DNA from: Clostridia bacterium
GTDB taxonomy: Bacteria; Bacillota; Clostridia; Oscillospirales; Acutalibacteraceae
NCBI GenBank assembly: GCA_900767015.1
Contig: CAAFXQ010000261.1
Location: forward strand, 1-50,475
Reading direction: 5' to 3'
DNA: 50,475 bases
The number at the start of each line of letters is the position of its first letter. Position 1 is the stretch's first letter. Positions 2,750 to 50,475 of this stretch are shown one piece after another. The notes beneath the pieces are model-generated. The model did not search any database and had not been told where the DNA came from. It saw only the letters and a list, made by a program, of their open reading frames with translations. Made by a program: the position numbers and the translations under genes.

Positions 2750-2753
2750 AAAC

Positions 2754-3769: not shown

Positions 3770-3791
3770 TTCAGACGAATTAAGAAATGGA

Positions 3792-3823: not shown

Positions 3824-3847
3824 GTTCATTCCTGATTGCCCATAAAT

Positions 3848-3880
3848 AATCCCTTTCAGTCGAAGAGCCTGAAAGGGATT
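3848..3880 (-). terminator. Terminator hairpin at the end of the long minus-strand cluster
   Basis: Perfect 12-bp stem AATCCCTTTCAG (3848..3859) / CTGAAAGGGATT (3869..3880), 48 nt downstream of the stop at 3928. Confidence 0.6.
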
Positions 3881-3927
3881 GCTTGCTTTTCTATTGGTTT
3901 TCGTAAGTATCTTCCGAAAGCTTTTCG

Positions 3928-6148: not shown

Positions 6149-6202
6149 AGTCGGTCAATGCCCCTTTCTTCTTTTCTTTTTTCTTTTGCTGTTTTAAGAA
6201 TA

Positions 6203-6886: not shown

Positions 6887-6889
6887 TGT

Positions 6890-8403: not shown

Positions 8404-8416
8404 GTTTCTACTCCTT

Positions 8417-10719: not shown

Positions 10720-10732
10720 ATTCAAAATCTCC

Positions 10733-16539: not shown

Positions 16540-16580
16540 GTAAAAAGAAACACAGGGCTGTTGCAAGAAGCAACAGCCCT
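16540..16580 (-). terminator. Terminator of the giant gene
   Basis: 11-bp stem AGGGCTGTTGC / GCAACAGCCCT (16554..16580). On the minus strand it is followed by GTGTTTCTTTTT. It lies 20 nt after the stop at 16601. Confidence 0.75.
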
Positions 16581-16600
16581 ATTGTTATTGGGATTGGCTC

Positions 16601-19600
16601 TTACTTGAAGACTGAGAAGATCTTCTGGAAGAATGCCTTGATCTTAGCAAGAAGCTTCTGGAACCAGTTGAGTGTCTTTTCACCTTCGTCAACAGCGTCA
16701 TGGTACTGATCGTGGTCACCGATGGTGTCGTTCCATGTGCCGGTGATTTCTTCCATTACCTGAGCGATGCTGCCGTAGATACAGGTGTCATTCGAACCGA
16801 GTGCGTCGAAGATTTCCTGATAGATCTTCTGGATCTTGTTGATGTCGCCGCTGAATGCTGCGTCAACCTGAATGGCAATTCCGAGAGCCTGGAAGAGAGC
16901 TGCGACGATGATGTCGGGTACCTCATACTTCGAGCAGGTATCGAACATCTTGTCGATGCCGTAGGCTACGGTCTGCTTTGCACCGCTCTGGAGCATGAAT
17001 ACATCTGCGAGCCAGTTGACGAGTGCTTCACGGTTGTGAGCATCACCGAACATCTCAAGAGCCCAGGTGATAACAAGTGTCAGCGTGTCACCCTTATCGG
17101 ATACGATGAAGGTCTGCGTCGACTTGTTGGCCCAACCGTCATACTTGCCGGTGCCGTAATCGTTGATGTACGGGAACGGATCAGTCGGTGTGGTGAAGGA
17201 GTTTGCAGAGTACGAACGTGAGGTTGCAACTTCCTTCGTTGAGGTGCCGCCCTCCTGAGCAAGCTTGTAGAAGTCGATTTCAGGAATCTTGAAGTCATAC
17301 TTCTGACCGAGTACCTGAATGTTGAAGCCGATGTTGTGGAGAAGCTTAGAAACATTGAGCATGCTTACGAAGTCCATGTTATAAGCTCTGCCGACAAGTT
17401 CAAGGATTGAGAATACAGGTGCTACGATATTTCTTACGGCAAGGTATACGCCTTCGTTGGAGATGAAGTACGCTACGTTCGGAAGTATTGTTGTAAGCGT
17501 ATCGACAGGTCTGTCGAGAAGTCTTTCAGCAAATACGCCGATCTTGGTAAGGATATAACCGATTACCTGCGTGTGATCCTTTTCACAAAGAGCCTTGTAC
17601 TCGTTGTAAGTAAGAACCTCTTCAGCGGTGAGGCCGAAGGCTTCGAGAATCGGGATAATACCGTAGTCGTAGCCGTTGCCGCCGCCGATCTTGACGATGT
17701 CAAGAATGTTGAGTGCTTTGCCTTCGCCCATGAGGAGAAGTTCAAGTACGGAGTTGAGCGGAGTCAGAACGTCGGTAAGAACTCTCAGGAAGCCCTGGAT
17801 GTCGCCGTCCTTGATGCCCCAGTCGGTGCCAGCGAAGGAGCCGACGTCAGCCCATGTTCCGTCTTCCTTGGCTGCCGCCGCTTCAAGAAGCTTAGCGCCG
17901 TTGTTCAGGAATACGTTGCCGGCCTGATACTTGGAGGTATCGGTGTAGTAATCGTAGTTGTCGATGAACTTAGCGTAGTAGCCCTGAACGGTGAAGTCAA
18001 GGTCAGTTTCTTCGGTGCTCATGCTCTTAACAACGTTAAGAATATTTGCTACCGTCGAGCCGCCGAGAAGCGGTACGAGCTTATCAAGAAGAAGGTTGAT
18101 TGTTGCATTGTTGATGTACTTCTGACCGAGCAGGCCCTTGAGTGAACCGAAGTCAGTCTTGCCGAGAATCTTCATGATCAGATCATCAAGGTTGTTGGCG
18201 ATGATGTCTGCATTGGCTTCTGTCAGCATGATGTACGTCGAGTAATCGAACTTCTTGGTCTTGATGGATCTGTTCTGTACGGGGATGTAGGAAACGTCTC
18301 CGCCGCCGATGAGATCAACGATAATATCGATAAGCTTGGTCGGATCCTTAATGATTTCCTCAATCAGCGAATCAATCGGTTCACCGAAGCCGTCAGGCTT
18401 GCCGAGGATTTCAAGAAGCTTCTCGTAGTTCTCCTGCGTGAGGATAAGCTTAACGAGGGTTACGAAGGTGTCTGCCGGATCTCCGACAACGTTCTGATAG
18501 TCAGCGCCGTTGTAGATATCGTACTTCGTGCTCATGGAGGAGCCGGTCATGTCGATAAACTTGTCGCCGTCGGTGTTAGCTGCTGCGGTTGCCGCAAGCT
18601 TGAGCCAGTCAAGCTCGAGGGTGATGCCGAGCGGCTTGCCGTTAATGGCGATACCGGCAAGTACATTGTTGAGAAGTACTGCAAGGTCGCTGCCCTTAAC
18701 GGTGATCTGTACGCCTGCGTCAACGCCCGGATGTGCCTTGCCGATGTAGGTTTCTGCGATCGACTTGTCAGTACCGATGTTGCCGAGGTTTACGTTGATA
18801 GCGATCGGGAAGATCGGGTCAACAGCTTCGAGAAGGTTGTTTACAGGAGCGATGAGGTTCTGAACGATCGTTTCAAGGTTGTCGTTGCCGATTACATAGC
18901 AGAGGTTTGCAAGAATCGGAAGAACGTTTGCGATCGGTTTGTCGAGAATCTCGTCTACCTTTGCGAAGACAGCGTCAAGGATGTACTTGAGGGTGCTGCC
19001 GTGGTTTGCTGCAACGTAGGCTTCATATTCAGCCTGAGTCTTGGCGCTGATGCCGAGAAGCTCAAGAACCGGAATGACTGCGTAGTTGTAGCCGTTGCCG
19101 CCGATAACGTTGATTTCGTCAAATGCCGTAATCTTGCTGCCGTTGTGTACGCCGGTCTTTTCGAAGGCTGCTCTGTCTGTGCCGCCCATCAAGAGGAGAG
19201 CCAGAACACCGTCGAGCGGGAGAAGCATATCACAGACAAGGTTTACAAGGTCTGCGGTTGAGGTGATGCCCCAATCGAAGGCTGTTGCAGTTCTTGTAAC
19301 GGTTCCGTCTTCAGCGGTGGTTTCTTCACTGTGTGCAAGCCATACTTCGTTCCAGGTCTTGGCTGTGCCGATGTAAGCGGCAAGCTTCGAGCCGAACTTG
19401 GTATTTGTGAAGGCCTGCGGGTTGATGTCAAGGTCAGTCAGGTTTGTAAGCTGATGTACATAACCGATGACCTGATCAATTGTTTCAGCCGGAAGTCCCG
19501 AGAGAAGCTTCGCAATCGAGGAGACAAGGAGGTTCGCAATGTCGTCCTTAACGAACAGCGGATAAACGATGTCCTTAAGGCTCGAGTTGCTGCCGTCGCC

Positions 19601-22600
19601 GATGAAGCCGAGAACAACCGGGATAATGGAGTCAAGGTTCATGAGAGCTTCGTTGAGCTGCTCGTGAGACTTAGCGCTTGAATAGGTTACTTCGATCTTT
19701 TCGAGCTGCGGCTGGTTGTAAGCCTTATACTCTACAAGATACTTCTTCAGAAGCTTAACGAGAATCTTGGCAACGTCTTCGCTCTTTCCGTCAAGCGAGA
19801 GAATGATATCTCCGGCTGTGGAGGTTGTGTCGAGGTTCAGCGTTGTGCAAAGGATCTTCAGGAAGTCTTTGGTGAGAACCGTATCAAGTACGTACAGCAA
19901 GGTGTCGCCGTTTTCAACGTGCCACAGGGTGACGTCATCGTCAACATTCAGTGCACCTGTCGGAGCGTCAATTCTGACTGCCGCCTTGGCAAGCTCTTCG
20001 AAGAAGTTGGTCGGGAGAGCCTTGATGACGTATACGGTTTCGCCGGTCTCGCTGTCCTTGATTTCAATCTTGCTGAGAAGATCATTGATAAGGTTGATGA
20101 GGTTTTCGCCCTTGTTGCCTGCGATGCCGATGATGTCGCTCAGTCCCATACCGATGAAGCCCTTCAGAAGGCCGTCGATCTGATCTCTTGAGATGACGCC
20201 ATCGAGTGCGTCGAGGATACCGAGTACAGGAGCCGCAAGGTTCTGGATTGCAATTTCGACGTCGTTGTTAGCGATGAAGAAGCTCAGGTTGCCGACAACC
20301 GTAAGGATCGTCGAGAACGGAGCCGCACATACTTTGTCAACGAGTGCGAATACATAATCGAGAACGTTTTCAACTGCCTGATTTGCGGTAGCCGCATCCT
20401 TCTTGGCTACGCCGAGATCCTTAAGGCCGAGGCCTGTGATGATCAGCGGTACAAGTGCCGACTCGTAAGCGTTGCCGCCCTTGAGGCTGAGACTTGTGGA
20501 TTCATCAACGCTGATCTTGAGATCCTTACCGGTGAGCAGGAAGGCCAGTACGCTTTCAAGCGGAGTAAGGAGATCGAGAACGGTGCTTACGAATGCATCC
20601 TTGCTGCCGACTCCGGTGAATACCGGATCGATCTTGACGATTGCGTCGCCGTTTTCGTCAACTTTGCCTGTCTCGTGGCTGTGAGCCTTGAGAACGTCTG
20701 CCCATGTTACGCCTGCTTCTGTGTCAGCCGGAGTAACGGTTACATAAGCGATAAGCTGTGCGTTGCCTGTTGCCGCTGCGAAAGCAGTCGGGGCAAGGTT
20801 TACGCCAAGAAGTTTGTTCAGCGTATTCGCAAGGTCTGCGGTCAGGAAGCCGGCGAGAGCCTTGACAAGTGCGCTTGTGATGGTTGCCATCATATCGTCG
20901 GTGAAGAGCATCGAGCCGAGGAGATAATCTACGATGTCTGCAAGGTCTGCGTCTGCCTTACCTTCGATAGCCTTTGCAATCTTTTCAAGGAGCGTCCACT
21001 CTGCTTCATCCTTTGAGGTGTCTGCAAGCATGGTGATCACTACCGGAGCTGCCTTGTTGAGTACCTTGTCGAGGCTTACGATTGCATCGTCAAGACCGTC
21101 GATGTTGTTGAAGTCAACAGTGCCGAGGAACTTGTAGATGTACGGAAGAATGGTCACATCGTAGGAGCCTGTCAAAATCAGGACAACGGTTGCAACAAGG
21201 TTCTTGATTGCGTTCGGGTCATTGAGAATGTCGTTAATGATATTCTTGATGGTTTCGTCAAGGGTTACATCCTTCAGAAGTCCCTCAACGAGGTTCTTGA
21301 TGTTTTCGCTGTTTTCCGCCGTGAGAGCAGTATCAAGAAGTGTTACCAGCGTATCAGCCGGGTCACCGGTGATATTCTCGAGGTCATCGCCGTCTTCACA
21401 AACAGGATACTTCGTATAGTCCTGCTTGGTGTCGATGGTGATGATATTGCCGGCACCATCCTTCTTAGCCATCTTTGCGGCAAGAGCGTTCCAGTCGAGG
21501 TCGAGTGAAAGCTTAATCTCAGTGCCGTTGATGTTAAGCGAACCGATTGCCTTATTGATGAAGTCAGCCAGTGCTTCACCGGAAACATTGATGCTGATTC
21601 CGTCGGGGATACCGTCGTGAGCGACGCCGATGTAGGTATCAACAATCTTTGCGGCCGCAAGGTCGATGCGGATTGCGATCGGATATACATCGTCGATCTC
21701 ATCGATAAGGGTGTTAACCGGAGCAAGAAGGTTTTCAGCGATTGTGTTGATGCCGTCAGAGCCGATGAAGTAGAAGAGGTTGGCAAGTCTTGAAAGCAGT
21801 TCGTTTACAGGTGTTGCGAGGATTTCGTCAACCTCTGTGAAGAGAACTTCAAGGATGTACTTGAGTGACGAACCGTCAGTTCTTACTCTCGATTCATACT
21901 GAACCTGCGTAAGCGGGTCAGCACCGAAGGCTTCAAGAAGCGGAAGTACTGCGTAGTTGTAGCCGTAGCCGCCGTTGATTCTGATGTCAGCTCTTCTCTC
22001 TACTTCCGGATCCTCAATGGCTATGATCTGTCTACCGCAAAGGAGAACCTGGAAGACAACATCGAGCGGAGCGAGAAGATCACAGGCGAAGTTTGCAAGG
22101 TCTTCCTTCGTGGAGATCTTCCAATCGAAGGTGCTGTGCATCGTCTTGTTGGCGGTTGCTTCTACGAGGGTTACGGCAACTTCGGCTGTATCCTTGTTGT
22201 TGTCAACGTCAGCCGTCAAAAGGTCAGCCTTGTCGCTGTAATAGTACTCAGTTTTGTCTGAACCGTCTTCAGCGGTTACCGTGTATGAATACTTGTAGGT
22301 CTTAACCTGTGTGACTTCGACGTCAGCGGTCGTGCTGTTGTTGTCAACGTCAGCCATGGTCAGTCCGTCAAGCGTACTGTAATAGGTTGCAGCCTTACCG
22401 TTTGCGTCAGTGTAGGTGTATACATACTTCGTGTATGTCTTTTCAACGTCTTTCCATGTGACTTTTGCAAGTTCTGCATCGGAAATGCTTCCGTCGCCGT
22501 CAGCGTCGGTGGCCGCAGCCGTGATGAAGTTCTTCAGCTGTGAGCCGAACGTGTCGTTTGCGAATACCGACGGGGCAAGACTACTGATACCAAGGTTGGT

Positions 22601-25600
22601 CAGTTCGTTGACATAGGAGAGAATGTCTTCAAGGTTAAGCTTGGCGAGAACCGGAACAAGCAGGTTCATCAGAAGGTTGCCGAGGTCAGCGTCGCTGATA
22701 AGTCCGTCGATGAGGGACTTCAGGTCGCCTACGCCGAGCATTCCGAGTACGCTTACAAGAAGCGGATCGAGAGCCTTGATTGCGTCAGTCGTGTTCTTGT
22801 GGTCAAGTGCACCGTAGTACGGAGCCGTTGCCGTACCAAGGTCAGCCTGCTGAATTCTCTTATAAGTGATGCTGTAATCGTTCAGGAGCATGATGATGAC
22901 GTCTGCCAGATCATATTCCTTGTCAGCGAGTGTCAGGAGCGTTGCGCCGAGGTCTTCGCTTGTATTAACGCCGACCTTCGTGAAGATGGTCTTCAGGAAG
23001 TTTTCGTCGAGTACGGTTGCGAGGATATACATCAGAGCGTTGCCGGTGTTGACATCCCAATCGTTTGTCTCTGTACCGATGTTTGCGTCTGCGTGGACAA
23101 CATCCTGAACGTCGATTGCATATTTGCTCAATTCAACGAAGAAGTCCTCAGGCAGCAGGTTGATTGTGTAAATTACTTTATCGTTTTCATCTTTGATTTC
23201 AATGCCCTTAATGAGCTCATTGATGAAGCCGATAAGGTTTGCGCCGCCGTTATTACCGATTTCGATAATATCGGTCAGACCCATTCCGATTAAGCCCTTC
23301 AGGATTCCGTCAAGCTGGTCTCTCGAGATGATCGAAGAGGCCAAGTCAACAATACCGAGGATCGGAGCCGCAAGATTTTCGATAAGCGGCTGGAGATTGT
23401 CGTTGGCGATGAAGAAGCTGAGGTTGCTCAGAACGCTGAGAATCGTTGTAAGCGGAGCTTCACAGATCATGTCAACGAGTTCGAATACATAGTCAACCAC
23501 ATTGCCGATTGCTTCGTTAGCCGTTGCCGCAGAGTTCGTTTCAATGCCGAGCGCTCTGATCAGCGGGTTGATTGCCTTTTCGAAGGCTCTTCCGCCCTTA
23601 AGCTGGATACCCTCAATTTCGAATTCGAGCGGTGTGCCCATGAGAACGAAGGAGAGGATCGGTTCAAGCGGCTTGAGAAGGTCAAGTACGAGACCGACGA
23701 AGCTGTCCTTATCGTTAGCAGCCCAATCGTAAGGCTTGAATTTATATTCGGTATCACTGATCTTGTCTGCTCTGAGAGCAAGAACATCGTTCCATGTTGC
23801 ACTGTCGCCGACATAGTTGATTACCTTGCTGTTGCCGGTTGCGGCGGCAAACGCCTTAGGAGCAAGATCAATACCGAGGAGATTATCGATTGTCTTGGTA
23901 AGGTCTGCGGTGAGAGCACCGGCAAGAGCCTTAACAATTGTGTTAATGAGTTTCGAGAAGGTGTCGTTGTTGAAGGCATACTCTGTAAGTGCCCAGTTAA
24001 CAATGCTTTCAAGCGTTGCATCTTCGCCGACACCGTCTGCAAGCTTCTTCAGGAACGAGTCTTCTTTTGCCGTTGCGCCGAGGATCTTGACGACGGTCGG
24101 AACAGCTCTGCCGATCATGTTGTCGAACTTCTCAATGGCCGTATTCAGGTCATTCATCTTGCTGTAATCGCTGAAGTCAAGTGCGCCGAGGAAGGCGTAG
24201 AAGAAGTCCTTGCTGTCATCGACATTGTACTGGCCGCAAAGGACGAGAACAACAACACCGATGAGGTTTTCAATCGCATCCGGGTCGTTCAGAACGTCAT
24301 AGATGATCTGAGCGATTGTCGAATCGAGCGAAGCCGGGATAAGCGACTTGATCAGAGCGGCAATGCCTTCGGTGTTATCCGCCGTAAGGATTGTCTGAAG
24401 AAGTGTAATGAAGGTATCGACTACATCGCCTTCAATGTTTACATAGTCGTCAACTTCGTCCTTGTTGGTAACTTCGCCGATGTTGTAAACCTGCTTGGAC
24501 GGGTTCTTGACAAGTTCGGCGCCCAAAGTATCCTTTTCAGCCGGATCCTGGGTTCTTGCCATCTTGGAAGCAATTTCGTTCCAATCAAGGTTCAGCGAAA
24601 GGTTGATGACGCTGTCACCGATCTTGATTGAGCCGATCGCCGAGTTGATAAGATCAGCAAGGTCTGTCGAAGCAACGTTGACGGAAAGACCGGCCTTGAG
24701 ACCCGGATGTTCTTTTCCGAGATAGGTTACAAGAATCTTGCTGTTGTCAACGCCGAGCATATTCAGGTCGACAGAGATGGCAAGCGGATATACATCGTCG
24801 ATTTCGTCAATCAGAACGTTGATCGGAGCAACGAGGTTGGATACAACACCGTTGATTCCTTCAGAGCCGACGAAGTAGAAGATATTTGCGAGTTTTTCGA
24901 GAAGAGTCTGAACCGGAGCGTTCAGAAGGTCTTCAACCATTGTGACGATTTCATCAAGAATGTACTTGATTGACGAGCCGCTGTAAATACTGTCAATTGA
25001 CGCATCATAGTCGGCCTGTGAAAGCGGGTCAATTCCGAAGGCTTCAAGAAGCGGGATAATCGCATAGTTGTAGCCGTTTCCGCCGTAGATTCTGATGTCA
25101 TTTTCGTCCGGATCCTGGAGAACGATGATCTGATCGCCCTGAAGAATGACTCTGAAGATGATGTCGAACGGAAGAAGCATATCACAAACAAGATTTACGA
25201 TATCTTCAAGACCGTTGAGCTTCCAGTCGAAATCGCTCTTGACAGCTGTTACCTGCTTGTCGGTTTCGACTTCGTTGCCTTCAGCGTCGGTTTCTTTTAC
25301 ATAGACCGGCTTCAGGTCGTAGGTCTTTGCATCTTCGCCTTCGCCGACAATGTACTTGGTTTCACCTTCTGCGCCGTAATAGGACTGTTCCTTACCGTCG
25401 GCGTCAATGTAGGTGTAAGCATATTTCGTGTATTTCGCCTGAACGTCACTCCATGTCTTGGCGTCGCCGATGAAGTTGGCAAGCTGGCTGCCGAACTTAC
25501 CGTTTGTGAAGGCTGCCGGAGTGATGTCAAGGTCAATGTTGGTGACTTCCTTAACATAGCCAAGGATCTCAGCAATGTCAACGCTGCCGTTGTCAAGTTT

Positions 25601-28600
25601 GGCAAGAACCGGAACGAGCAGGTTCATGACAAGGTTGCCGAGGTCAGCTTTCTTGAGAAGATCATTGATGATGCTTTCAAGTGTTGCGCCGTTGCCCTTA
25701 ACAAGGCCAAGGACTGTCGGGATAATTCCGTCGATTGCGGTAAGAGCACTTTCGATGTTTGTATCGGTAATGCGTGTATCCTTCATCGAAACCGGAATCT
25801 TTGTAATATCCTCCTGACGGATCTTGCTGTACTTGATGGAATACTCAGTTACGAGCATTACGATGATATCAACGATTTCATCTTCCTTGCCGGCAAGCGA
25901 CTTGACGACAGAAGCAAGCTGTTCGTTTGTATCAATACCGGCCGCCTTACAGATGAAGTCGAGAATGTCGTCCGTAAATACGGTCTGAAGCAGGTACATG
26001 AGGACATCGGTCTTATCGACGCTCCACTCATTGGTGGGTTTGTCTACTTCGCTGGTATCCTTAACGTCGATGCCGTACTTGCTCAGTTCTTCGAAGAAGT
26101 CAGCGTCGAGAAGCTTGGTAACCGGTGTTGTTCCGTCAGGTCCGACAATGTTCAGACCGGCGACTGCTTCGTTAATCAGTGCAACAAGTTTTTCACCGTG
26201 TTCACCGGCGATGGTCGTAATGTCTTCAATGCTGATCTTCAGATAGTTCTTCATAATCGCATTGATGTCGTCCATGGTTACGATGTTTTCAACGATTGAA
26301 AGCAGGCTCGTAATCGGAGACAGCAAGCTGTTGAGTGAAGTTTCTATACCGTTGTTAGCGATGAAGAAGGACGCACTGCCGACGAGTTCAAGAATTGTTG
26401 AAAGCGGAGCTTTTTCGAGCTTGTCGACAAGTCCGAAGATTCCGTCAACAACTTCTCTGATCATATCGTTCGAGGTGGCAATCTGATCACCGGCCTTCAG
26501 GCTGATGCCGAGTGCCTTACCGAGCGGAACGATGGCATTGTCATAGGTGTTTGCACCCTTGAGGACGAAGCCGTCAATGAGTACTCTGATGTTTTCGCCG
26601 CGAAGCAGGAAGTCAAGAAGATCTTCGAAGATCGCAGTCAGTTCATAAACAACGCCGAAGAAGCTTTCCTTGTCAGTTACATTCCATACGTAGTCAAGAA
26701 TGACCTTCGTTTTCTGATTCTCTGATTCGTCAAGATCCGGAGTAAGCGAATATTCCTTACCGTCGATTGTCTCTTTTTGAAGACCCTTGGCACCGTAATA
26801 GGTTTCCGTGATATCCTGGCCTTCCGCATTCTGACCGGTTACATAGGTGTATGCGTACTTCGTATAGGCGTTTGCAACATCAGCCCATGTTAAGCCCTTT
26901 TCGGTATCGGAAGCGGTTACCGTCGCAATCAGACCGGCTATCTTGCCGCCGTTTGCGTTGGAGATTGCTGCTACACCGGCCGGTGTAAGGTCGATTTCGA
27001 CAATCTGATCAACAAGCGTCTGGATAAGATCCATCGTCTTTGCGTCAAGTCCGCCGAGAACGCCGATGAGAAGTCCGACAAGGGTATTGGCCATACCGTC
27101 GTTAAACGCATATTTCTTAAGTGCCCAATCAACAATGTTTTCAATTGTTGCGTTGTCACCGAGTGCTTTGTAGATGTCAGCAATCAGCTGGATCGGTTTT
27201 TCCTGCGTTGCAAGAATCTTGATGACCTTCGGAACGGCATTGCCGACGATCTTGTCGAGCTTGCCGATTGCTCTGGTCGTTGAGGACTTCCATACGCCGT
27301 CGTCTCTGTAATCGTAATCTTCTGCGCCGAGATACTTGTAGATCATGACGATCGTCTCGACATCATATCTACCGTTGAGAAGCTTGATGATTGCATCGAC
27401 AAGCGACTGCGGATCCTTGATTGCGTTGTTGATGATATCCTGAAGTTCCTGCGGAAGCTTGGTCAGGTCTACCTTGAGAAGCTTGAGAACCGCATCAATA
27501 TTTTCAGGTGTGAGAATCATTTCGGCAAGAGCAATCAGGGTGTCGGCTGCGTTACCGGTGATATTTCCGCCCGGAGTTCCGATGCAGATATCCCAGTTGG
27601 AGTTGACCTTAGACGGGTTGAGCGTGATTGTTCCGCCTTCGCCAACCGCTACTGCCTGAGCGGCAAGTCTTGCTGTGTTGAAATCAAGGTCAAGAGCCGG
27701 AATGAACTTCTGGATCGCTGCTCTTACAAGTTCCTCAAGTGTTGCGGCGTTAAGGTCGATGTTGACACCGACTTCAGCGTTATGCTGTGCAACCTGGTCA
27801 CCGAGGTAAACCTGAAGAATTTCCGTATTGTTGATAAGACCCATCAGGTTCAGCGTTACCGAAACGGGGATGACGCCCTGAACAGCTTTGATCAGTTCGC
27901 TGATCGGAGCGATCAGGTTCGAAATAATCGTTGTCAGACCGTTCTTGCTTACGGTATACGCAAGGTTTGCGATAAAGCCGAGCAGGTAGTTGAGGGGTTC
28001 GTCAAGGTTGTCGTTGAGTGTCTTGAGGATGGCGTTAAGAATGTAAGCCAGTGAGCTTTCGCCGGTTTCAAGCTGGAGATCATATTCAGCCTGAGTATAA
28101 ACGTTCTGAACACCGAGTGCTTCAAGAAGCGGGATAATAGCGTAGTTGTATCCGCTACCGCCCATGATGTTGATTTCTCCGAACGCACCGAGCGAGTCAC
28201 CGTATGTGCCGTTTGCAGCGAAATTATAGGTTCCGCCGGAAAGGAGAAGCTTCAGGATCGGATCGAACGGCTTCAGAAGTGCGGTAACAGCGTCAACAAG
28301 AGCTTCTGCTTTTGCATCCTTACCGACTGCCGCCGAAACGCCCCATTCGCAGTTGATATTGAGCTTCGTGATCGGCTTGCCGTCCTTAAGCTCATATTCC
28401 TTATCGCCAATTGTTGCGGTCGTAAGTCCGGGAGCGCCGTTGTAGGTTGCGGTTTTATCCTTACCGTCAGTATCCTTTTCGCCTGTAAGGTAAGTGTACT
28501 GATATACCGGTGTCAGTTCGACTTCCTTATCGCCAATGTTTGCTTTAAGAAGGTCTTTTGCACCGTAATAGGTTGCTGTGATATCGTTACCTTCCGCATC

Positions 28601-34600: not shown

Positions 34601-37600
34601 CTCACGGTCAACGGTATATTCGGTTGCCGGAGTTCTTGTAATCTGGCCGCTTCTTCTGTCGTCGTTGATTTCAACCTTAGCAACATAGCTGCCGTTTTCG
34701 GGAAGCCATGCACAGGAAGCAAGGTCGATAAAGAGGGTATCGCCGACGATATCTCTGAGTGCGATTTCGTTGCCGTTAATGGTGAAGGTTACACCGTCAA
34801 TAACCTGCCAGATGATGTCAAGGAAGGTCATTTCGGGTTCTTCGGTTTGTGTTTCAGCACCTTCGTCAGCAAGAGCCATAATGTCTTCGCTGAGAACGTT
34901 AGCCATTACGTCTTCGCTTGAAGCTTCGTTATCTTCAACAATGTCAAGGACATAGGCCGCAGCCGCAGCGGAGGCAACTGTCTGTGCTTCCGGCTCGTAG
35001 CTTGTTGTCGCTACGCCGGCGTCAGCGTTGGCATTCTTGATCAGGTTCTTCAGAAGCGACTTGACGGTTCCGAGAAGATCGATGTTGTAAATAACGCTGA
35101 TCTTTTCGGTGATGGTTGTAACCGGAGCAAGAAGATTTTCAAGAATGGTGTCAATGCCCTTGCTTTCAAGGAAGCGTGCAAGATAGGGCAGGATCGTTGC
35201 GATTGTGGAAACCGGTCTGTCGCAGACGGAGTCTACAAGGGCAAAGATTGCATCAACGATCGACTTGAGGAGAAGCTCAAGATTGTCGTCATCGTTACCT
35301 CTTACGAGATCCTCGCCGTAAACAGCCTTTTCAAAAGCTTCGTAGGTAGCGTAGTAGTTTGTGTAATAGAGGTTCGTTGTCTCTTTGCCGTTTTCGTCAA
35401 GCTGATAGAGATGGTCAATACCGAGAGCTTTAATCAGCGGGAGGATAACGCCCTTGTAGCCTTCAAGACCTCTGATGTTCGCCTTTTCGTAAATGGAAAG
35501 GTTACCGCCGGTAAGAAGAACTTCAAAGATGGTTGAAAGCGGCTGAACAAGGCTCCAGACCATATCAACGAACTGATCACGAGTGTTAATATTCCATGTT
35601 GCATGGATCTGAACGGCCTGCTTCTGAACGTCAGTGTAAACCGGCTTGGTCTTCGCTTCGTCTTCCCAAAGAGCGTTGCCGTCCTTATCGGTAGCCTGAA
35701 CGTAAACCGGTGTTACGGCGTGGCCGTCGATGTTGGTTTTGTTCTCGTCCGGGCTGTAAACGGTTACAGTCTTGTCGCCGTCCTTATATTCGTAGACATA
35801 TTCCATGTGGCTAGCGGCAACCTGGCTCCATTTCTTGGAGGTGCCGATAATATCCTTGAGTGCCGGAACGTTCTTAGCGTATGTCTGCGGAGTCAGGGAG
35901 TAGCCTGCGCCTTCTGCGATGCTTACGACGATATTGACAATTTGTGCATTCTTCTTGTCACCGAGTAAGCCGATGAGAAGACTTACGATCTTATTGATAT
36001 TTTCGTCCTTGTAGAGATAGCCCTTCAAAAGTGCATCAACTGCATTTTTCAGAGTAATATCATCATCAGCCGTCAAGCCAAGCTTTGCAAAGAGACCGGT
36101 TTCGTCAACATCTGTTGTTGCCGGATCGTCCTGCTTGGTGAGCTCAGCCTTGAAGAGGTTGAGAATGGTTCCGATCAGGCGGTCGAGATTGTCAATTGCA
36201 GCCGAAGTCTTTACTCTCGAAAGCTCGGTTACATCCTGACCGGCTTCAATTGCCTTAAGAACCTCTTCGTGAGAAGCATAGCCGGCATCTTCAAAGAATT
36301 CTCTGTGTGTTTCGGATTCGATATTAACAAGCGTAATCTCCTTTTGACCCTTGACGGTGTAAGAGGTGAACAAGCCAACAATTACTTCAACAAGGGCTTC
36401 GGGATTCTGGAATACGTTGGTGATGATTTCATCAAGAAGTTCAGCGTCGTCACCGTTTTCGTCGGTAAGGTTATAACCAAGAAGGTTACCGAGAACTTGC
36501 TTAATGGTTGTGTTCTCAAACAGGAAGTTGAGAAGGAACATCAGAAGCTCAGCACGGCTGACCTTTACCTGACCGTTATTGTCAATGGCAACAAGATTGC
36601 TGTCGGTCTTCGGGTCGCCGAGGGCGGCAATTGACTTGAAGAAGTTCTTCAGGGCGTCGCCGCGCATTTTTCTTGCCAAGGTGACATCTTCCTCATTTTC
36701 GGAAGCGGCAAGTTTTTTGGCTTCAACTTCAGTGTCCTTATCGATGAACAGAACGATGCTGTACTTGTAGTCATTTCTGTTTTCATCGGTGATTACGGTA
36801 TCCTTCGAGGCAAGTACGGACGAAAGATCAAATTCCATTGAACCGATGTAGCGAAGAAGAGAATCCGTAAAGGACTTGACAGCAACTTCGTGTACGATAA
36901 TTTCACCGGTATCCGGATCGATTTCAACATAACTCTGGAGAGCTTCCTGGAAGGACTCCCAAGAGCCGGTCGCAAGAACGTCAACAAGGCCGGAGGCGAT
37001 TGCGTTCAGGTCAAGGTTGATGATCTCCTTGAGTCTGTTGGTAAAGGTTGTAAGCGGAATCAGAACATTCGAGACAAGCGTGGTCAGACCGTCGCCGTAA
37101 ATGAAGTAGGCGAGAGTCGGAAGAGCCGTCGAAAGAGATGAAACCGGGCAGGTAACAAGAATTTCGAGGAAGTAGAAGACATAGTTGCAGAATGTCTTAA
37201 CCGCTTTGCCCATGCCGTCAACATCAAGTTTTCCGGCATCGTCATAAACGAGATCATAATATTCGTCAGCGGTCATAACCTGAGTCGGGATCTTCTGACC
37301 GGCCGGCTTGCCCTCGTTCATGGTTTCATAGATTGTCTTGCCGGTTACAGGATCTGTCGTATTCTGAATGTATTCAAGAACGCCGTTCAGGCCAAAGGCA
37401 TTCAGGAGCGGAAGAAGTACATTTTCGTAGCCCTTATTGCCTTCAATGTTCAGGCCGCCGTCAAACAGCTTGAGTCCGTCACCGGCGATAAGCATTGAGA
37501 ACAAGGGGGCAAACGGAGTAAGGAGCTCCCAAAGGTCATTGAGGAGTTGATCTTTCTTTGCGGTGAAGATCGTCTGGGTGGTGTCGCCTGTGCAGGCATC

Positions 37601-40600
37601 AATGCCCCACGACCAGTTCGGCGCATCCTCGGTGTTGTGTTTAGCGCTGAGCTTGTAGGTGACAGCATCTTCGCCTTCGCCGACAGTATATACCTTAAGC
37701 TGATCGTACTTGAGTGAAACCGTTTGTTCAGCGCCGTCTTTGTCCGTATAGGTATAAACGTACTTGTCGCCGTCCATGGTACGGGTGTAGCCGGACGAGA
37801 GCATCGTCTTCGAGTATACCGGCGTTTCGGAAACAAGCTTTCCGTCTGCGTCATACTCTTTTTCTGTCTTGTCGACAAGGTTACCGGCTTCGTCCTTAAC
37901 CTGAACAACAGCATACTTCGGCTTGCCGTCGACAAGAATGATTTCGTTGTTTTCGTCGAAGGCATAAGCAAGCACAGCGTGATTGTCATAAATCGCCGCC
38001 CAGGTAAGCTCGGTTCTATTACCGCCTTCATATACGTATATTCTGCCGGTCTTAGTATCTTTTTCGATTCGATAATTGCCGGTGCTGTCCTTATCAAAGC
38101 CGTAAAGCATATAAGAAGCAAACTGTGTCAGAGTTGTGCCGTCCGCTTTGTAGAGATACTTAGCGGTCGAAACGTCGAAGCCGGCAGACTTGAGAATGGA
38201 AATAACCATCTCGGTCGTCTTGGAGTCGCTGCTGCCGAAGATTTTGACAAACAGATTGCCGATGGCGTTCATGATGTCGTCTGTCAGGAGGTTTTCGCTG
38301 GCAACAGACTGAATGAAGGACCACAGACCTTCTCCGTTTGTGAAGTCATAGTCGATCGGAAGATTCTTGATGACGCCTTCCTCAAGAAGGGCAGCAAGTA
38401 CGTCGGGAACGGCCTTTTGAATGACATAATCGATGTTGTCAATGGCCTGTTCCGTACCGTCTTTTGTAAACTTATCTTTTGTGGCTTCCCAATCGTAGCC
38501 GCTGTGTTCGATTCCGTACTCTTCCTTGGCGGCTTCTGCGATTGCGGCGTCAGCACTGTTGAGAAGATTGTAGAAGTAAGCGTTGCCGTCGTCCGGCGTG
38601 TAGTCGGTAAGAAGGTCGATCAGGATACCGGTTACGATATCAACACGAACCGCACCGTTGCCGTTTTCAAGAATGGCATTCAGATTGTGAGCAATGTTTT
38701 CAACAATCTTTTCAATTCTTTCCTGTGCTTCAACGTCCTCAGCGTCAACGATATCTTTTTCATTGTTGATACCGGCGAGAACTGTGTCAGCGATGAACTG
38801 AACAAGCTCCGGTGACATGAGGTTTCTCATGAGCGTGATGAGAAGCTGACCGGCGGTCGAGTCAAATTTTGTGAAGGTTGTGACACCGTTGCCTCTCTTG
38901 GTCGAAGCGTTGACATCGGCCTTTGTCGCTGAATCGGCGGCAATCTTACCGAAGTCGATCATCTTCATGTTGACCGTTGCATTTTCGTCACCCATGAACC
39001 TTGAAAGCATTGTGTTAAGCAAGGTTTCAAAGTCAAGGTACTGTTCAAGAAGTGCGTTGATGTCAAGGTTTACAACTCTTGAAAGAATCGGATCTGCGAT
39101 TTCAAGAAGCTTGAGAACCGGCGCAACCAGGTTAAGAACAGCAACAGAAAGGTTGTTCGTTGTCTTGGCTGAACCGTCGGCTTTCTTTTCGCCTGTCGGA
39201 TACTGATACAGGAAGTATGCAATATTCGGAAGCTTTTCAAAGAGCGTTGCAATCGGAGCTTTGAGAAGTCCACGATCGGCTTCGGTTGCACCGATGAGCA
39301 GGTCAATCAGAGCGTTGAGAACGAGCGTAAGCGGTGAGTTTGTCATCGTTGCCATTCTCTTACCGTTTTTATTGATTGTTGTGCTACCGTAAACATACTG
39401 GTTAAATTCGGCTTGCGTCTTGCAGGCAGAATCAAGACCAAACGCTTCAAGAAGCGGTACGATTGCTCTTGAATAGCCCTCGTTGCCCTGAATAGTCAGT
39501 TCATCCATAAGGGTGATGTCTTCACCGGTCAGGATAACGGCAAGCAGGGGATTGAGCGGCGTCAGAAGGTCGCTTACGAAATCCGTGAAGTTTTCGAAAG
39601 ACTTTCTTGTATTGGCATAGCTATCAAAGCCTGCAACGGTGAACCAGGTGTTGCCTTCGTGAACACCGATGTCAGCCCATGTCATGTTTGCAAGCTCTGT
39701 TTTTGCAAGATCTACGCTGATGCCGCCGGCTGCACCGTATTTATGTCTGCCGGCCTGATAGTTGAGCCATCTTGCGATATTATCGTTTTTGCCTGCTCCG
39801 CTTAATGCGCTGTTATAGAAGCCGAGCGGAGTAAGGTCAATGCCGAATTCGGCAAGGGCGGCGGCAAGCTTATTGACAATGCTTGTCGGGTCGCCGAGCA
39901 GACCGCCGAGAAGTCCTTTATCTTCTTTGCCGGTTTCCGGATCCACTTCGTGCGTACCGACAAGAAGCTTCATGAGCATTGCAACAAGATCATTCGAGAT
40001 AAAGAGACTGCCGAGAACCTGCGTAACGGTTGTCAGTTCGCCGTTTTTAACCTGCTGGATAACCTTGTCAAAGCCAAGCTTCGTGAGGGTTTCACCGGCA
40101 GCGGTACCTTCGGTAAGGTCGCCGAGAAGGGAAACGATCATCGGAACGAGAGAAGTCAGAACCTTATCGAAGTTCTCAACAGCAAGGTCAGCCTTTGCCA
40201 TCTTCTGCTCATAGGTTGTGTTCGGGTTTGCGGGGTCGCCGCTGTCAGCCAGCGATTCGTTGAGGTAATTGCCAAGCTGGAATTTGGTTGTATTATCGGG
40301 GTTCAGATACGAAACGCCGCTGTCGTCGACAAAGGTGCCGTCCTTAACGGGATCTTTGTATGCGTCAAAGTCGATGTTGTAATCGTTGAGCAAGCAGATA
40401 AGAACCGCCATAAGGCTGTCAGCCTGGCCGTTGGCAATCTGAAGGATCGTGTCGGTCGTACTTTTTTCACTGTCAGCAGTGTCAAGCATACCTCTTAAGA
40501 GCGGAGCGATTTCGTAAATAACACCGTCGTCAAAGAGCCATCTGAAGAGGTTGAGCAGGGTATCGCCCGGGTCGGTTTTCGCATGATAGGTTGTCATTGT

Positions 40601-43600
40601 GCCGTTGAATCCGGCAAATGTTGTTTTTTGTATTGTGCTTGTTGAAAGGAATCTGTTAACAGGGAAGTGAAGCGGAACGGCTTTTGTCTGATTGTTTGCA
40701 ACCTTTGCTCCGTCCCAAATCCAGTCAATAAGCGTATCACCAAACATGTTATACAGGGTCTGCGTCAGCAAACCGATATTTGTAAAGTAATACTTTGTGC
40801 CTGTGCCGTTGTTCTGATAATATGCGGGCTCTGTTTTAGAAACCGTTTTGTTTCCGTCAGCATCAGTTGTAACCTGCATCAAAACATTATCAAAGGTGGT
40901 CGGCTTCGATGTAGTTGATGTCGCTTTAATTAAAAGCGCAAGCAAACCGTCTGTGCCGTTGCTGAGAGCATCAACAAGACCCAATTTTGTCAAGGTGGAT
41001 TCAAGCAAATCCCAAACCTTGAGTTCTATAACATCAATTCCGCCTAAAAGATCAACAATAATTTTAGCTGATACATTTTTTAGTTTCGGAATAATCTGGT
41101 CGTATTCGAGTGCAGCAAGGAGGTTCGGCAAAATTTCAAGAATTGTCTGAACCGGTTTGACAAACAGAACATTATCAAGCCAATAGGTGATCGGTTCAAG
41201 AAGATATTGGAATAAAGTAACACCGTTGTTTGTCAAAACTACCAAGTCGCCTTTTTCTTCGGTTTGACAAGCAGCATCAATATCTGCTCTTGAATGGAAG
41301 CCGTTCGGATTCGAGCTCGAACGTTCATTGATACCCAAAAGTTTATAAAGAGGTACAAACAATCGATCATAAAGGGAGTCACCGGTGTTTTGAACGTTAA
41401 TTGTAACATTGAGACTACCAACCGCACCGGTTACTGACTTTGTTTGTCCGGTTACTAATGCTGCAAGGGGAGAACCGAGACCAGAGAAAACAGCGGCGAG
41501 AGAATGATACAAGTCATCAGGATTTTTTATGTGCCAGCATTCTTCATTACTCGTTATTTTTGTCCAATCAACATCATCCCAATATGTGTAACTACCTTTT
41601 ATTGGGATAAAAGCAATCGTGGCCATTTTTTCACTTTTTGTAGCTCCTACGGTGGCGCAAGCTTGAATTATTTGAGAATAATTATAGTTCGAGCCCATGA
41701 ACTGACCATCGAAAAAGTGTCCCCATGTTACATCGGTAGTCTTGTCACTTTGATTTCCAAAGTTAGTGTTCCAGAAGAAATGGTGAGGCTGATTCGGAAT
41801 AGCAGTTTTCGCAACTGAAGGAACAGTTCTTGGAAGATATACATTACCTACTCCGACATTTATATCTGCACTACTTCCATATGTACTTTCTGTCATAAGG
41901 GCATTGCCAAGCATCGGATAAATCGTCTGGAACAACATTGTCTGAATATTGCCGGAATAGAGAAGCTTCAGAATCGTGTTGATAAGGAATTCACGAAGAT
42001 TGTTAATCTTAGAACCTGCCGTGTGTTTTGTGCCGTTTGCTTCTGTGTATGCATATTTCCATGTACCAAGCCCCTCTCCGTTTTGCTCCATAAGCTTTCC
42101 GAGAAGAGTACCAAGGTCATCCGAAATAATCATGTTATCGAAATCGGCAACAGCGGCATCCATAAGATTTCTAACCTGTGTAACGTCTACGTCTCCGATT
42201 TTAAGACCGATTTTGTTGACAGCGTCTTTGATAATGGTTACATCAAGCTTATTAACAGCCGTCAGCCAGCCCCAGTTGTAATAATTGTTACCGCTCGAGC
42301 TTGAAACATCTTTAAAGAGATACTGAAGAATCTTCCTATCATGTGTTGCGCCGTTATTATTGTCCGAAATTGCGTCGGATTTCAGCTTTCCAAGATTTGT
42401 CTTGAAATCAACGGCAGAGTTATAGTAACCTGCGATTGTATTGAAACGTGTGTTGAGGTTGTCAACTGACGGCATACCGTCAGCCGGAACGTAAGCGGGC
42501 GCACTGTCAAGGTACATACCGAGAGTTGCAATGTCGGTTTCGATAGCATTATAACTGTCTATAATCGCTTCGAAGTTGTAGTATACAACTTTGTTGCCGC
42601 CTTCTTTATAGTAGGTTTCAACTCTCGTAACCTGGTCAACGATTCTCTGCGCAACAGCACCTTTAATCGTATTGATATAGGTTGTATACTCATCGATGCC
42701 GTCCGGATAGACTGCGGCATAAACAGCCGCATTGTTTGTATCCTTGCTGAGGGCAACAGCCTTATTGTAAAGTGTTCTGAATTCTTCGGAATACGCCGTC
42801 AACTGCTTATAGGTCATTCCGTTGAATACCGTTGTCTTGATGAGGTTATCCATCTTGGCTTTGTTTTCGAAATGCTGATAACCGTTAACATCAATCTTAA
42901 CCGTGTCCATTTTCGCAAGAAGCTGGTTATACAGGGCTTCCGTTATACGGTTTCCGGTTGCGGAGAAAGACTCCTTAACGTCCTCGAATGTACCGTATCC
43001 GAGAACGAACGTGTCAATGTTTTCTTTCAGAACCGTTGCTCTGTTGATGAAGTCCTTGGCTTTGGCTTCATCTGCACTGCCCGGCCATGCTGCGGTTGCG
43101 TCTTCACTCTCATGGTCATAAGTGGGTACTTCTTCCGCAAGGAGCGCAGCAAGCTCATCGGCATATACTTTAGCATATGCTCTTGCAACGTCAGCTTTCA
43201 AGGTTGCCATGTATTTTGTTACGGTTACATTGTAATAGTCAGCACCGCCGTCAAAATGCGGAAGAATCAGAGCAAAGATATTTTCACCTTTATAGTTGGT
43301 CTGATTATGTAAATTGTTATCAATGGCAACAACGCTTTTATAGAAAGCGAGAAGTTCATCGGCCGTATAAGCGGAATAATCCGTTGCCATTTTCTCGTCA
43401 AACTGCTTTTTATAGCTGGAAGCGTAAGCGTTGTTAATAGCGTCAAGAAGACCGTTGTTGATCCAGTCTTCGGTTTCGGCGTAAGTCTTTCCGACTCTCT
43501 CTGCGACATAGTGATCCCAAAGCTCATCGGGTTCTGCTGACTGAGAAAGAATTGCCGCCGTCTGGAACGCAGACAAAACGTTTGCGCACGACTTATCGCC

Positions 43601-44383: not shown

Positions 44384-44527
44384 GAAAGTTTCCTCCTTAG
44401 AATGAAGTATATATTACAAATAGGTCGTCCCTATAGAATACCGAAAGTCAGCCGAACCGGAAAACCGGGCGGCAGAAATTTCAAAAAGGGTACAATTCAC
44501 CCCATAAAGACACCTATAACTATAGGT

Positions 44528-44556
44528 AGTATAACATTCCGTTGTCAGCATTTCAA
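44528..44556 (-). promoter_or_regulatory. Probable promoter of the giant gene (extended -10)
   Basis: On the minus strand: TTGAAA (44551..44556), 17 nt, TGtTATACT (-10 at 44528..44533). This implies a ~135-nt 5' UTR. Confidence 0.5.
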
Positions 44557-44893: not shown

Positions 44894-45268
44894 TTATTTT
44901 TCCGCAATCACTTCAACTTCAACCAATGCACCTTTCGGAAGTTCCTTTACTGCCACACAGGAACGAGCGGGCTTTCCGCTGAAATATTCGGCGTAAACTT
45001 CGTTAAATGCTGCAAAATCGGTCATCTCTTTTAAGAAGCAGACCGTCTTGACTGCCTTATCAAGGGAAGAACCTGCCGCTTCTAACACGGCTTTCAGATT
45101 CCGGCAAACCCGGTGAGTCTGTTCTGCGATTGCCGTTCCCTCTATGGCTCCCGTTTTCGGATTCAGCGGAATCTGACCCGAGGTAAATACAAGATTGGCG
45201 ACAACGGTTGCCTGCGAATACGGTCCGATTGCCGCCGGTGCGTTTTCTGTCTGAACTTTACTGATCAT
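44894..45268 (-). CDS. ridA: RidA family (YjgF/L-PSP) reactive-intermediate deaminase
   Basis: MISKVQTENAPAAIGPYSQATVVANLVFTSGQIPLNPKTG..; C-terminal ARSCVAVKELPKGALVEVEVIA. Confidence 0.92.
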   Translation of the reverse strand: MISKVQTENAPAAIGPYSQATVVANLVFTSGQIPLNPKTGAIEGTAIAEQTHRVCRNLKAVLEAAGSSLDKAVKTVCFLKEMTDFAAFNEVYAEYFSGKPARSCVAVKELPKGALVEVEVIAEK

Positions 45269-50451: not shown

Positions 50452-50475
50452 AGATCGGAAGAGCGTCGTGTAGGG
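50452..50475. other. Illumina TruSeq adapter remnant (non-biological)
   Basis: AGATCGGAAGAGCGTCGTGTAGGG equals the start of the standard read-2 adapter-trimming sequence (reverse complement of ...CCCTACACGACGCTCTTCCGATCT of the universal adapter). Confidence 0.95.

Follow-up and report, generated by a model that had tools for sequence, protein, structure and literature searches.

Giant repetitive surface proteins are already a known kind of bacterial protein. The Ebh and Mrp-type staphylococcal proteins, made by a monoderm host, reach about 10,000 amino acids (aa) and carry a signal peptide and a unique N-terminal region. Ebh consists of dozens of largely helical tandem modules, is thought to form a long fibre, and is anchored to the membrane at its C-terminus by means other than an LPXTG signal; its unit is a helical FIVAR-GA pair of about 126 aa that Pfam covers. 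A different tether is found in the exported E. coli proteins PBP5 and PBP6, in which a basic amphipathic helix at the C-terminus keeps the protein at the outer face of the cytoplasmic membrane. Giant1-5 of Apilactobacillus kunkeei are extracellular proteins of 3,000–8,000 aa with a predicted elongated shape, an N-terminal head and lineage-specific expansion, and Giant1-4 begin with a beta-solenoid like that of serine-rich repeat adhesins (PMC12863079). The 'Hodor' proteins of gut megaplasmids are secreted, exceed 7,300 aa, combine S-layer and MBG (YGX-type) domains, and have genes that lie beside those for sortases and additional Sec components (PMC12934698). None of these systems includes the module family described here, which we characterize from a gene for a protein of 9,260 aa in an uncultured Clostridia bacterium of the gut, of the order Oscillospirales and the family Acutalibacteraceae (assembly GCA_900767015.1, contig CAAFXQ010000261.1, positions 1 to 50,475; this whole stretch of 50,475 nucleotides is called the window). 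The protein is built of 15 tandem paralogous modules, a unit of ~550 residues that varies between 451 and 747 aa.

The repeat structure is unambiguous. A first-pass annotation, drawn from the letters of the window, had proposed fifteen modules with one internal order of seven elements and a degenerate first copy, and each of these proposals holds. Cutting the protein at its 14 boundary motifs yields 14 pieces of 451–747 aa, the last of them 569 aa with the C-terminal tail included, and MAFFT aligns these 14 full modules end to end with the seven elements in a single order. Because circularity was to be avoided, each module was scored by a profile from which it had been left out (n = 14, nominal database of one million sequences), and the left-out modules reach E = 1e-36 to 6e-107. 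The profile of modules 2–15 also finds module 1, on which it was not trained, at residues 737–1329 (independent E-value, i-E, 1.5e-15; profile positions 30–523), which makes the first copy degenerate yet homologous. A loose form of the core pattern occurs 11 times, against a mean of 0.04 in 2,000 shuffles. Self-comparison was carried out by chunk-wise BLAST, as BLAST of the whole protein against itself returned the identity match only. The family hidden Markov model (HMM) matches the protein 15 times, with the elements F..L..LL.P, G..GY....P[LI]LEALG, P...LPNL.YFI and NLL.PV in that order; module 15 is matched as two stretches (profile positions 5–155 and 207–524).

Other parts of the first description require adjustment. 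The core does occur 15 times but is not strictly conserved, since 4 of the 15 instances match GY..A[ILV].PL[LI]EA[FL]G, and the only residues invariant among the 14 full modules are D42, W135, P268 and P314 (numbering of module 10). The non-repetitive N-terminus had been put at ~1,000 aa; module 1 starts near residue 737, and the unique region is therefore residues 1–736. Most of the C-terminal ~300 aa taken as non-repetitive is the second half of module 15, and the unique tail spans approximately residues 9162–9260.

Modules 8–14 (window 18311–29059) alternate between two subtypes, A in modules 8, 10, 12 and 14 and B in modules 9, 11 and 13, so that this part of the protein forms a super-repeat of ~1,000 aa. 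The core of subtype A is GYNYAIIPLLEAFG; that of subtype B is [AT][YF]-x-x-A-x-x-PL..., for example AYESALVPLI. Orthologous modules in the relative P0021 are collinear and 41–68% identical to those of the window protein, against 23–43% for paralogues, and collinear matches run through P0024 and P0025 as well. Orthologous modules are more alike than paralogous ones; therefore, the duplications predate the species splits, and each position has been maintained since. Recent expansion of the repeats was rejected, with paralogues at that level of identity and older than the splits. P0025, a full-length relative of 5,829 aa, possesses modules 1–7, 14 and 15 and lacks modules 8–13, which points to the window's own lineage as the one that amplified the A-B pair. 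Identity between orthologues peaks in the core (67%) and is lowest in the region of the T-W motif and beta insert (49%), where 7% of residues are unaligned and where most of the unaligned residues fall. Insertions and deletions of at least 5 aa in relatives of 81% identity fall for the most part in three places: near the T-W helix, within the beta insert, and in the loop that leads into the core.

Searched exhaustively with a module profile, 1.84 billion representative proteins (representatives at 50% identity) yielded 640 representatives at E <= 1e-3, of which 371 reach E <= 1e-30. Many members of the family range from 2,000 to 7,700 aa, the profile matching as many as 19 stretches, and protein length follows module number closely (r = 0.95). 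The window protein is longer than every one of the best 150 of the 640 representatives. Scanning one genome per species for a pattern seeded with four subtype-A modules gave 60 loci; the seed biases these loci to the close subfamily, so that the wider family is under-sampled and its taxonomic range is not fixed by them. All 60 are metagenome-assembled genomes labelled Acutalibacteraceae, Ruminococcaceae, Oscillospiraceae, 'Faecalibacterium', Eubacteriales or Clostridia, and the names of many refer to samples of human or animal gut or of rumen.

The modules have no counterpart among catalogued domains. Neither Pfam nor NCBIfam yields a significant match on the whole protein: the best Pfam match has E = 0.011 and 16.6 bits against a cut-off of 25, and all NCBIfam matches fall far beneath the family cut-offs. 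Nothing significant was found by the same two libraries on the termini or on the two-module relative P0005, Pfam places 0 domains on 14 diverse relatives (~47,600 residues), and a profile search of all PDB chain sequences gave no match below E = 0.06. The head region (residues 31–736) has no match in Pfam, NCBIfam or PHROGs; it is common only to the full-length relatives P0025, P0024 and P0038.

AlphaFold2, run on an alignment of 21 rows that comprised paralogous and homologous modules, predicts an alpha/beta fold for module 10 with a mean predicted local distance difference test score (pLDDT) of 82.4 and a predicted template modelling score (pTM) of 0.81. The model begins with helices at 31–104, and a short helix starts exactly at the invariant Trp (W135) of T-W-x-D-V. 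The Tyr/Thr-rich insert forms a seven-strand beta region (143–205, pLDDT ~91–94). A long helix bearing F..L..LL.P (216–239) and a beta hairpin (242–257) precede the helix of the core, G-Y-N-Y-A-I-I-P-L-L-E-A (261–272), which ends at F-G. Helices 280–289, 297–312, 314–330 (P...L.NL.YF) and 333–352 (NL.AP) follow, then a mixed alpha/beta part and closing helices at 478–537. The core helices 216–239, 261–272, 297–312, 314–330 and 333–352 are the most confident stretch of the model (pLDDT 87–94). Foldseek comparison of the model with PDB and BFVD found no match at E <= 0.001, with template modelling scores (TM-scores) of ~0.1 or lower. The module is thus predicted to have an alpha/beta fold, without a recognisable relative in the sequence and structure libraries searched (Pfam, NCBIfam, PHROGs, PDB and BFVD). 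A model of modules 10 and 11 together retains both module folds, and its best PDB matches are insignificant alpha-solenoid proteins. The suggestion that the core serves as an interface between modules finds no footing in this model: the junction (541–568) is its least confident part (pLDDT 36–47), and pTM drops from 0.81 to 0.49.

What the short motifs do is indicated by the columns of 757 module instances from the family. The consensus reads F219, L227, P229, L234, L237-L238, G240 and G254-x-x-G257-Y258-x5-P264-[LI]-L-E267-A-L-G270 in its first part, and P310, L318-P319-N-L-x-Y323-F324-I, G329 and N336-L-L-x-P-V in its second. The best-kept columns are F219 (89%), G254 (93%), G257 (85%), Y258 (92%), P264 (82%), A268 (77%), L269 (81%), G270 (82%), P310 (84%), P319 (84%), Y323 (84%) and F324 (79%); well-kept polar residues are limited to E267 (74%) and N336 (78%). 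With few exceptions the conserved columns hold Gly, Pro or an aromatic or aliphatic residue, and they map to the helices of highest confidence; the motifs are therefore read as fold-determining. Several of them appear in the model to have the form of a helix N-cap, with T, S, N or D before the helix start and often Pro after it: T-W-x-[DE]-V, where the helix starts at W135, and D-[LI]-[TSN]-P are examples. Likewise, G-Y opens helix 261–272, and F-G closes it in what reads as a C-terminal Gly cap. These features support the view that the short motifs form the fold core of each module rather than an active site.

The first-pass annotation had called the core a structural or ligand-binding, possibly catalytic, site. 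Its structural half agrees with the conserved Gly, Pro, aromatic and aliphatic residues; its catalytic half has no support, the family columns containing no conserved constellation of Ser, His, Cys, Asp or Lys. One could still suppose that each module is a binding or catalytic unit, with the core as a glycan, lipid or metal pocket, and the whole protein a 15-fold multivalent binder or a processive enzyme. The core is indeed the best-conserved part of the module, its Tyr and Glu and two Asn (59% and 78%) could line a site, and modules are kept individually between species, as expected if every copy is functional. We nevertheless consider a pocket unlikely. Gly, Pro, Leu, Phe and Ala dominate, no core column has Ser, His, Cys, Lys or Asp above 50%, and within the giant protein itself several modules have N, K, Q, D, R or I where P-L-L-E has its Glu; similarity to enzymes or binding domains is absent from Pfam, NCBIfam, PDB sequences and PDB folds, and the core is inside the most confidently packed helices.

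The ends of the protein bear on its location. The most hydrophobic 19-mer by far is at residues 10–28 (mean Kyte–Doolittle hydropathy, KD, 2.52); the next four range from 1.91 to 1.97, and no 19-mer outside the signal peptide exceeds 1.97. Read from the sequence, the N-terminus MKLGKKALSCVLAIMMIVSSVSVCFSVLGA-GES has the features of Sec export, with K2, K5 and K6, a hydrophobic region at residues 10–28 and an A-x-A-like 'LGA'. Signal-peptide-like N-termini occur in 107 of the best 150 of the 640 representatives, and an N-terminus of the form K-K-x-L-S-V-x-L-A..M..S..SV recurs in most family members. The Cys of 'SVCF' does not mark a lipoprotein, as it has no lipobox and varies across the family. 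Conservation of the signal-peptide region as such is unusually high: the N-termini of P0021–P0170 read K-K-x-L-S-V-x-L-A-x-x-M-x-x-S-x-x-SV-C-F, which could reflect common descent or a specialised export route, as with YSIRK or KxYKxGKxW signals. The protein is strongly acidic overall (1,326 Asp and Glu against 687 Lys and Arg).

Its last 22 residues, NWFQKLLAKIKAFFQKIFSVFK, are basic, with a hydrophobic moment of 0.56 that ranks in the top 0.4% of the protein's 22-mers. The last ~160 aa (residues 9100–9260) have tblastn matches in 57 of the 60 related loci, and by a tail HMM all 60 end in the same amphipathic helix. The family motif, APNGFI.FFQKI..FF..I..FFKNLF, is Phe-rich and heptad-like; a strict regular expression finds it in at least 76 of the best 150 representatives, and many more have it by eye. 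At least 10 of the 150 end instead in a transmembrane helix and KKKK followed by a short acidic tail. The 910-aa two-module relatives P0005–P0020 end in DVPTGD, a hydrophobic helix and RKKK; this ending resembles a sorting signal, but it is not a canonical LPXTG and has no match to an NCBIfam sorting domain. A third type of C-terminus, ...GD[ST]DEVI..LVELL...A, is seen in P0077, P0097, P0118, P0123, P0169 and P0170, with neither the amphipathic Phe-rich helix nor a transmembrane helix. The giant protein does not belong to the sortase-anchored class: its 9,260 aa contain no LP.TG, and its C-terminus has no hydrophobic segment. Pfam finds no SLH, CW_binding, CWB2 or choline-binding repeats in it or in 14 relatives, the same proteins have no match to the cohesin or dockerin of Ruminococcaceae scaffoldins, and the Tyr/Thr-rich inserts match no repeat family. 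Outside the family, the tail as a query retrieved only eight fragments of 48–77 aa, and over all open reading frames (ORFs) of 67 loci and the window the tail HMM matched family genes only, which leaves the tail unsupported as a portable tag on unrelated proteins.

The hydrophobicity of the modules and of the tail raises the question of whether the helices act on membranes or carry lipids, in the manner of colicins or apolipoproteins, making the protein a giant toxin, lipid carrier or membrane remodeller. Each module has two markedly hydrophobic helices (19-mers with KD up to 1.9–2.0, such as LVCDMLLPLDGVLALLLMG and LSVAVLNLVAPVLKLLEIA), an amphipathic, membrane-seeking helix ends the protein, and the top Foldseek matches, insignificant as they are, are all-helical proteins. 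Such KD values are, however, typical of buried helices in soluble proteins and well under that of the signal peptide; no fold match to pore-forming or lipid-binding families was found, the gene has housekeeping neighbours rather than a toxin and immunity context, and the C-terminus is conserved rather than polymorphic. We regard a membrane-active role as improbable, and a polymorphic toxin in particular was rejected on account of the conserved C-terminus.

The gene itself has every appearance of being real. Its frame has zero internal stop codons, intact syntenic orthologues of 9,109 and 9,395 aa are present in independent metagenome assemblies, and a Shine–Dalgarno sequence together with promoter-like and terminator-like sites (Table 1) gives it the look of an expressed gene, apparently a transcription unit of its own. 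Repeats do invite misassembly, and phage portal proteins are among the insignificant top Foldseek matches, so an assembly artefact, a decaying pseudogene or a structural protein of a prophage or mobile element, such as a tail fibre or a tape measure, deserves mention. We give it almost no credence. The frame is uninterrupted over 27.8 kb, and intact collinear orthologues occur in many independent assemblies; the copies are only 20–49% identical in protein sequence (modules compared with module 10), and therefore an assembler could not have collapsed or duplicated them. Parts of the protein searched against PHROGs gave no match, the flanks encode EF-P, YceG, ThiF and NrdR and no phage genes, and the portal matches (BFVD and PDB) have E >= 0.03 and TM-scores <= 0.1.

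Taken together, these observations lead us, with moderate confidence, to a single giant Sec-exported acidic protein of the cell envelope, a C-terminally tethered fibre of beads on a string whose short motifs specify the fold. After the signal peptide and a unique head of ~700 aa, each of the 15 modules would be an independent folding unit. Helices would make up its N-terminal part, and a Tyr/Thr-rich beta-sheet, variable in length, would start right after the T-W-x-D-V helix; next would come a central bundle of about five helices, then a mixed alpha/beta part and the closing helices. The motifs D-L-T-P, T-W-x-D-V, F..L..LL.P, G-x-x-G-Y-x-x-A-I-x-P-L-L-E-A-F-G, P...LPNL.YFI and NL.AP would provide the caps, kinks and buried hydrophobics of the central bundle, and would be conserved because they specify the fold and not a catalytic site. 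Junctions of low confidence, probably flexible, would join the modules into a long fibre. The 22-residue helix at the C-terminus, or a transmembrane helix and KKKK in other members, would hold that end at the outer face of the cytoplasmic membrane, so that the head would be distal, and the head and the variable beta inserts would project outward as the interacting surface. The role may be adhesion, envelope spacing or shielding, or something else.

Several points weigh against this account. The literature search found analogous giant proteins and none on this module family. E267 and N336 are conserved polar residues that a role in folding leaves unexplained, and burial of the conserved residues is deduced from residue type, secondary structure and pLDDT. 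The weak two-module junction could result from alignment depth rather than real flexibility, the alignment having 14 rows that are partly out of register, with one row unaligned. The proposed localisation draws on sequence features and hydropathy alone. Since the protein has no cell-wall-binding, SLH or sortase signal, its retention at the surface depends entirely on the putative anchoring by the C-terminal helix, which might instead serve as a tag for secretion or sorting, or in oligomerisation.

A broader proposition can be put forward only tentatively, as we find it rather doubtful when all of its parts are taken jointly: that an undescribed fold family of gut and rumen Oscillospirales builds surface fibres of more than 100 nm, that the Phe-rich heptad tail is a new Gram-positive anchoring or sorting signal interchangeable with a transmembrane helix and KKKK, and that the variable Tyr/Thr beta inserts on 15 individually conserved modules act as an array, multivalent and specific to each position, that binds dietary particles, mucus or other cells.

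Table 1. Features of the window. Residues of the giant protein convert to window positions as nt = 44383-3*(aa-1); the first residue of each of modules 2–15 is the position of its boundary motif, and LOO is the E-value of the leave-one-out profile.
Feature	Residues	Core (aa)	Window	Strand	Basis or remark
Giant ORF, 9,260 aa + stop	1-9260		16601..44383	-	read from sequence
Promoter-like site TTGAAA-17-TATACT, extended -10 TG			44528..44556	-	~145 nt upstream of ATG; consensus match only
Shine–Dalgarno AAGGAGG			44392..44398	-	8 nt ahead of ATG; sequence reading
Signal-peptide-like N-terminus, MKLGKKALSCVLAIMMIVSSVSVCFSVLGA	1-30		44294..44383	-	hydropathy and family N-termini
Non-repetitive N-terminal 'head'	31-736		42176..44293	-	zero module-HMM matches, filters off
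Module 1, degenerate, core GDSLYDRLFVPLYKLLG	737-1330	1001	40394..42175	-	i-E 1.5e-15
Module 2	1331-1923	1633	38615..40393	-	LOO 1.2e-36
Module 3, longest beta insert	1924-2670	2315	36374..38614	-	LOO 1.2e-52
Module 4	2671-3324	2972	34412..36373	-	LOO 1.2e-58
Module 5	3325-3911	3640	32651..34411	-	LOO 7.3e-52
Module 6	3912-4583	4265	30635..32650	-	LOO 8.4e-78
Module 7	4584-5108	4849	29060..30634	-	LOO 4.5e-38
Module 8, subtype A	5109-5667	5408	27383..29059	-	LOO 1.5e-74
Module 9, subtype B	5668-6176	5943	25856..27382	-	LOO 3.6e-85
Module 10, subtype A, core GGNGYNYAIIPLLEAFG, AlphaFold2-modelled	6177-6714	6434	24242..25855	-	LOO 6.2e-107
Module 11, subtype B, beta insert almost nil	6715-7165	6930	22889..24241	-	LOO 2.9e-84
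Module 12, subtype A	7166-7736	7471	21176..22888	-	LOO 2.1e-95
Module 13, subtype B	7737-8210	7969	19754..21175	-	LOO 5.5e-76
Module 14, subtype A	8211-8691	8428	18311..19753	-	LOO 1.6e-92
Module 15	8692-9161	8900	16901..18310	-	LOO 6.7e-40
Conserved C-terminal tail	9162-9260		16604..16900	-	tblastn and tail HMM across related loci
Cationic aromatic amphipathic helix NWFQKLLAKIKAFFQKIFSVFK	9239-9260		16604-16669	-	ends C-terminal tail
Terminator-like hairpin, 13 bp stem then T-rich tail			16552..16582	-	19 nt past stop codon; pattern match only
Long antisense ORFs			16700-40498	+	e.g. 31616-33313 (565 aa), 37724-38815 (363 aa)
Small 124-aa ORF			44894-45268	-	between the two large genes
Upstream gene			45383-50475	-	longer than the listed 1,480-aa ORF
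EF-P, 185 aa			15197-15754		
TetR/ABC/LiaF-like/DUF4097 cluster			6890-11350	-	

The neighbours of the giant gene are ordinary chromosomal genes, coding for EF-P, YceG, ThiF, an alpha/beta hydrolase, TetR, ABC transporters, a LiaF-like protein, NrdR, a pyrophosphatase and a major facilitator superfamily (MFS) transporter, and the neighbourhood within the window has no sign of a prophage, a plasmid or a dedicated secretion system. Conserved neighbours were also sought in the 60 loci, where the flanks of ±10 kb are almost wholly taken up by the giant gene and the recurring clusters are antisense shadow ORFs. The long ORFs antisense to the giant gene in the window are most likely non-coding by-products of codon composition; Ser/Arg-rich antisense ORFs recur in related loci because they shadow the giant genes. 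The GC skew of the + strand is steadily positive over the giant gene (+0.045 to +0.12, window 16001–42000) and about zero or negative elsewhere. The coding strand of the giant gene is therefore C-rich relative to G, probably owing to codon and amino acid usage (Asp, Thr, Ile, Ala and Leu codons ending in C).

The frame of the gene upstream of the giant gene is open to the window edge, so that its N-terminus lies outside the window. It encodes a Listeria-Bacteroides repeat (Flg_new, E 2.5e-11) and a CarboxypepD_reg/Big_1-like domain, and by these domains looks like a second large surface protein; an exact-sequence look-up of this protein gave no match. Its C-terminus, CTCTCHRDGFWPTIFRFFHKIIKMLVGDFKCC, seemed by eye akin to the CxCxCH...FFFKIANFFRRLFG...CxC tails of P0064, P0099 and P0103, a likeness that was rejected as not significant (2.9 bits against the tail HMM, BLASTP E = 5.4). 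The small ORF between the two large genes we take to be RidA/YjgF-like from its …GPYSQA… motif. Contigs with an identical EF-P split into two groups (L064 and L065 versus L066, L067 and the window): in one, a giant gene (9,109–9,395 aa) lies shortly downstream of EF-P; in the other, that place is taken by pyruvate:ferredoxin oxidoreductase genes, and the 10 kb around contain no giant gene. The split is either a difference in presence and absence or a different genome arrangement in a related species. A cluster of a TetR-family regulator, an ABC ATPase, a permease-like protein with 12 transmembrane segments, a LiaF-like protein and a DUF4097 'toastrack' protein is conserved in the close relatives L053, L066 and L067 and resembles a module for response to cell-envelope stress or antimicrobial peptides.

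Oscillospirales (Acutalibacteraceae, Ruminococcaceae and Oscillospiraceae) are abundant and mostly uncultured in human and animal gut microbiomes, and little is known about how they present themselves to the host, to phages, to mucus and to food particles. The family adds hundreds of diverged representatives, many of them thousands of residues long, without coverage by Pfam, NCBIfam or solved structures. What draws attention to the window protein is the want of any domain annotation across 9,260 residues and a module fold that is confident yet unmatched; its function is one that we infer. The module, now defined by its limits, by a confident model and by the consensus F..L..LL.P / G..GY....PLLEALG / LPNL.YFI / NLL.PV, offers an annotation handle for a large amount of sequence called 'hypothetical' at present. 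Two ideas open to test come with it: a repeat fold that would be new and, in monoderm bacteria, a C-terminal anchoring signal that may be new. Were the protein an inert spacer, the biological impact would be modest and the annotation value would be kept.

Among known systems, proteins of the Ebh type appear to be the closest functional analogue. Ebh shares with the giant protein a single giant polypeptide, a signal peptide, an N-terminal region, tandem modules and a non-LPXTG tether at the C-terminus, which in the giant protein is putative. The unit of the giant protein, at 450–750 aa, is four to five times larger than that of Ebh, and it is alpha/beta, with a variable beta-sheet insert. Pfam finds no FIVAR, GA or DUF1542 in the giant protein at E <= 1 and none in 14 relatives; the anchor is a transmembrane segment in Ebh and an amphipathic helix here, and the two proteins have no relationship of sequence or fold. 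PBP5 and PBP6 exemplify the anchoring mechanism proposed for NWFQKLLAKIKAFFQKIFSVFK, whose binding to the membrane is predicted; they are unrelated in sequence, and the helix of the giant protein is heptad-like, Phe-rich (FFxKIxx repeated) and family-wide. Stacked helical hairpins recall the alpha-solenoids of the HEAT/ARM kind, and the top Foldseek matches of the two-module model, none of them significant, are SF3b, Syo1, RyR helical domains and AP2. With E >= 0.07 and TM-scores <= 0.10, and with a module ten times the length of a HEAT repeat that has two beta regions, the giant protein is not a member of that class. Giant1-5 differ in their Lactobacillales rather than Oscillospirales host, their repeat unit and their beta-solenoid, to which the giant protein has no similarity; they agree with it in size, predicted location and a Firmicute host (PMC12863079). 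In contrast to the Hodor proteins, the giant protein lacks the S-layer and MBG domains and the sortase signal and is set in a chromosomal housekeeping context, while both are proteins of more than 7,000 aa from human-gut Firmicutes with a signal peptide and a predicted place at the cell surface (PMC12934698).

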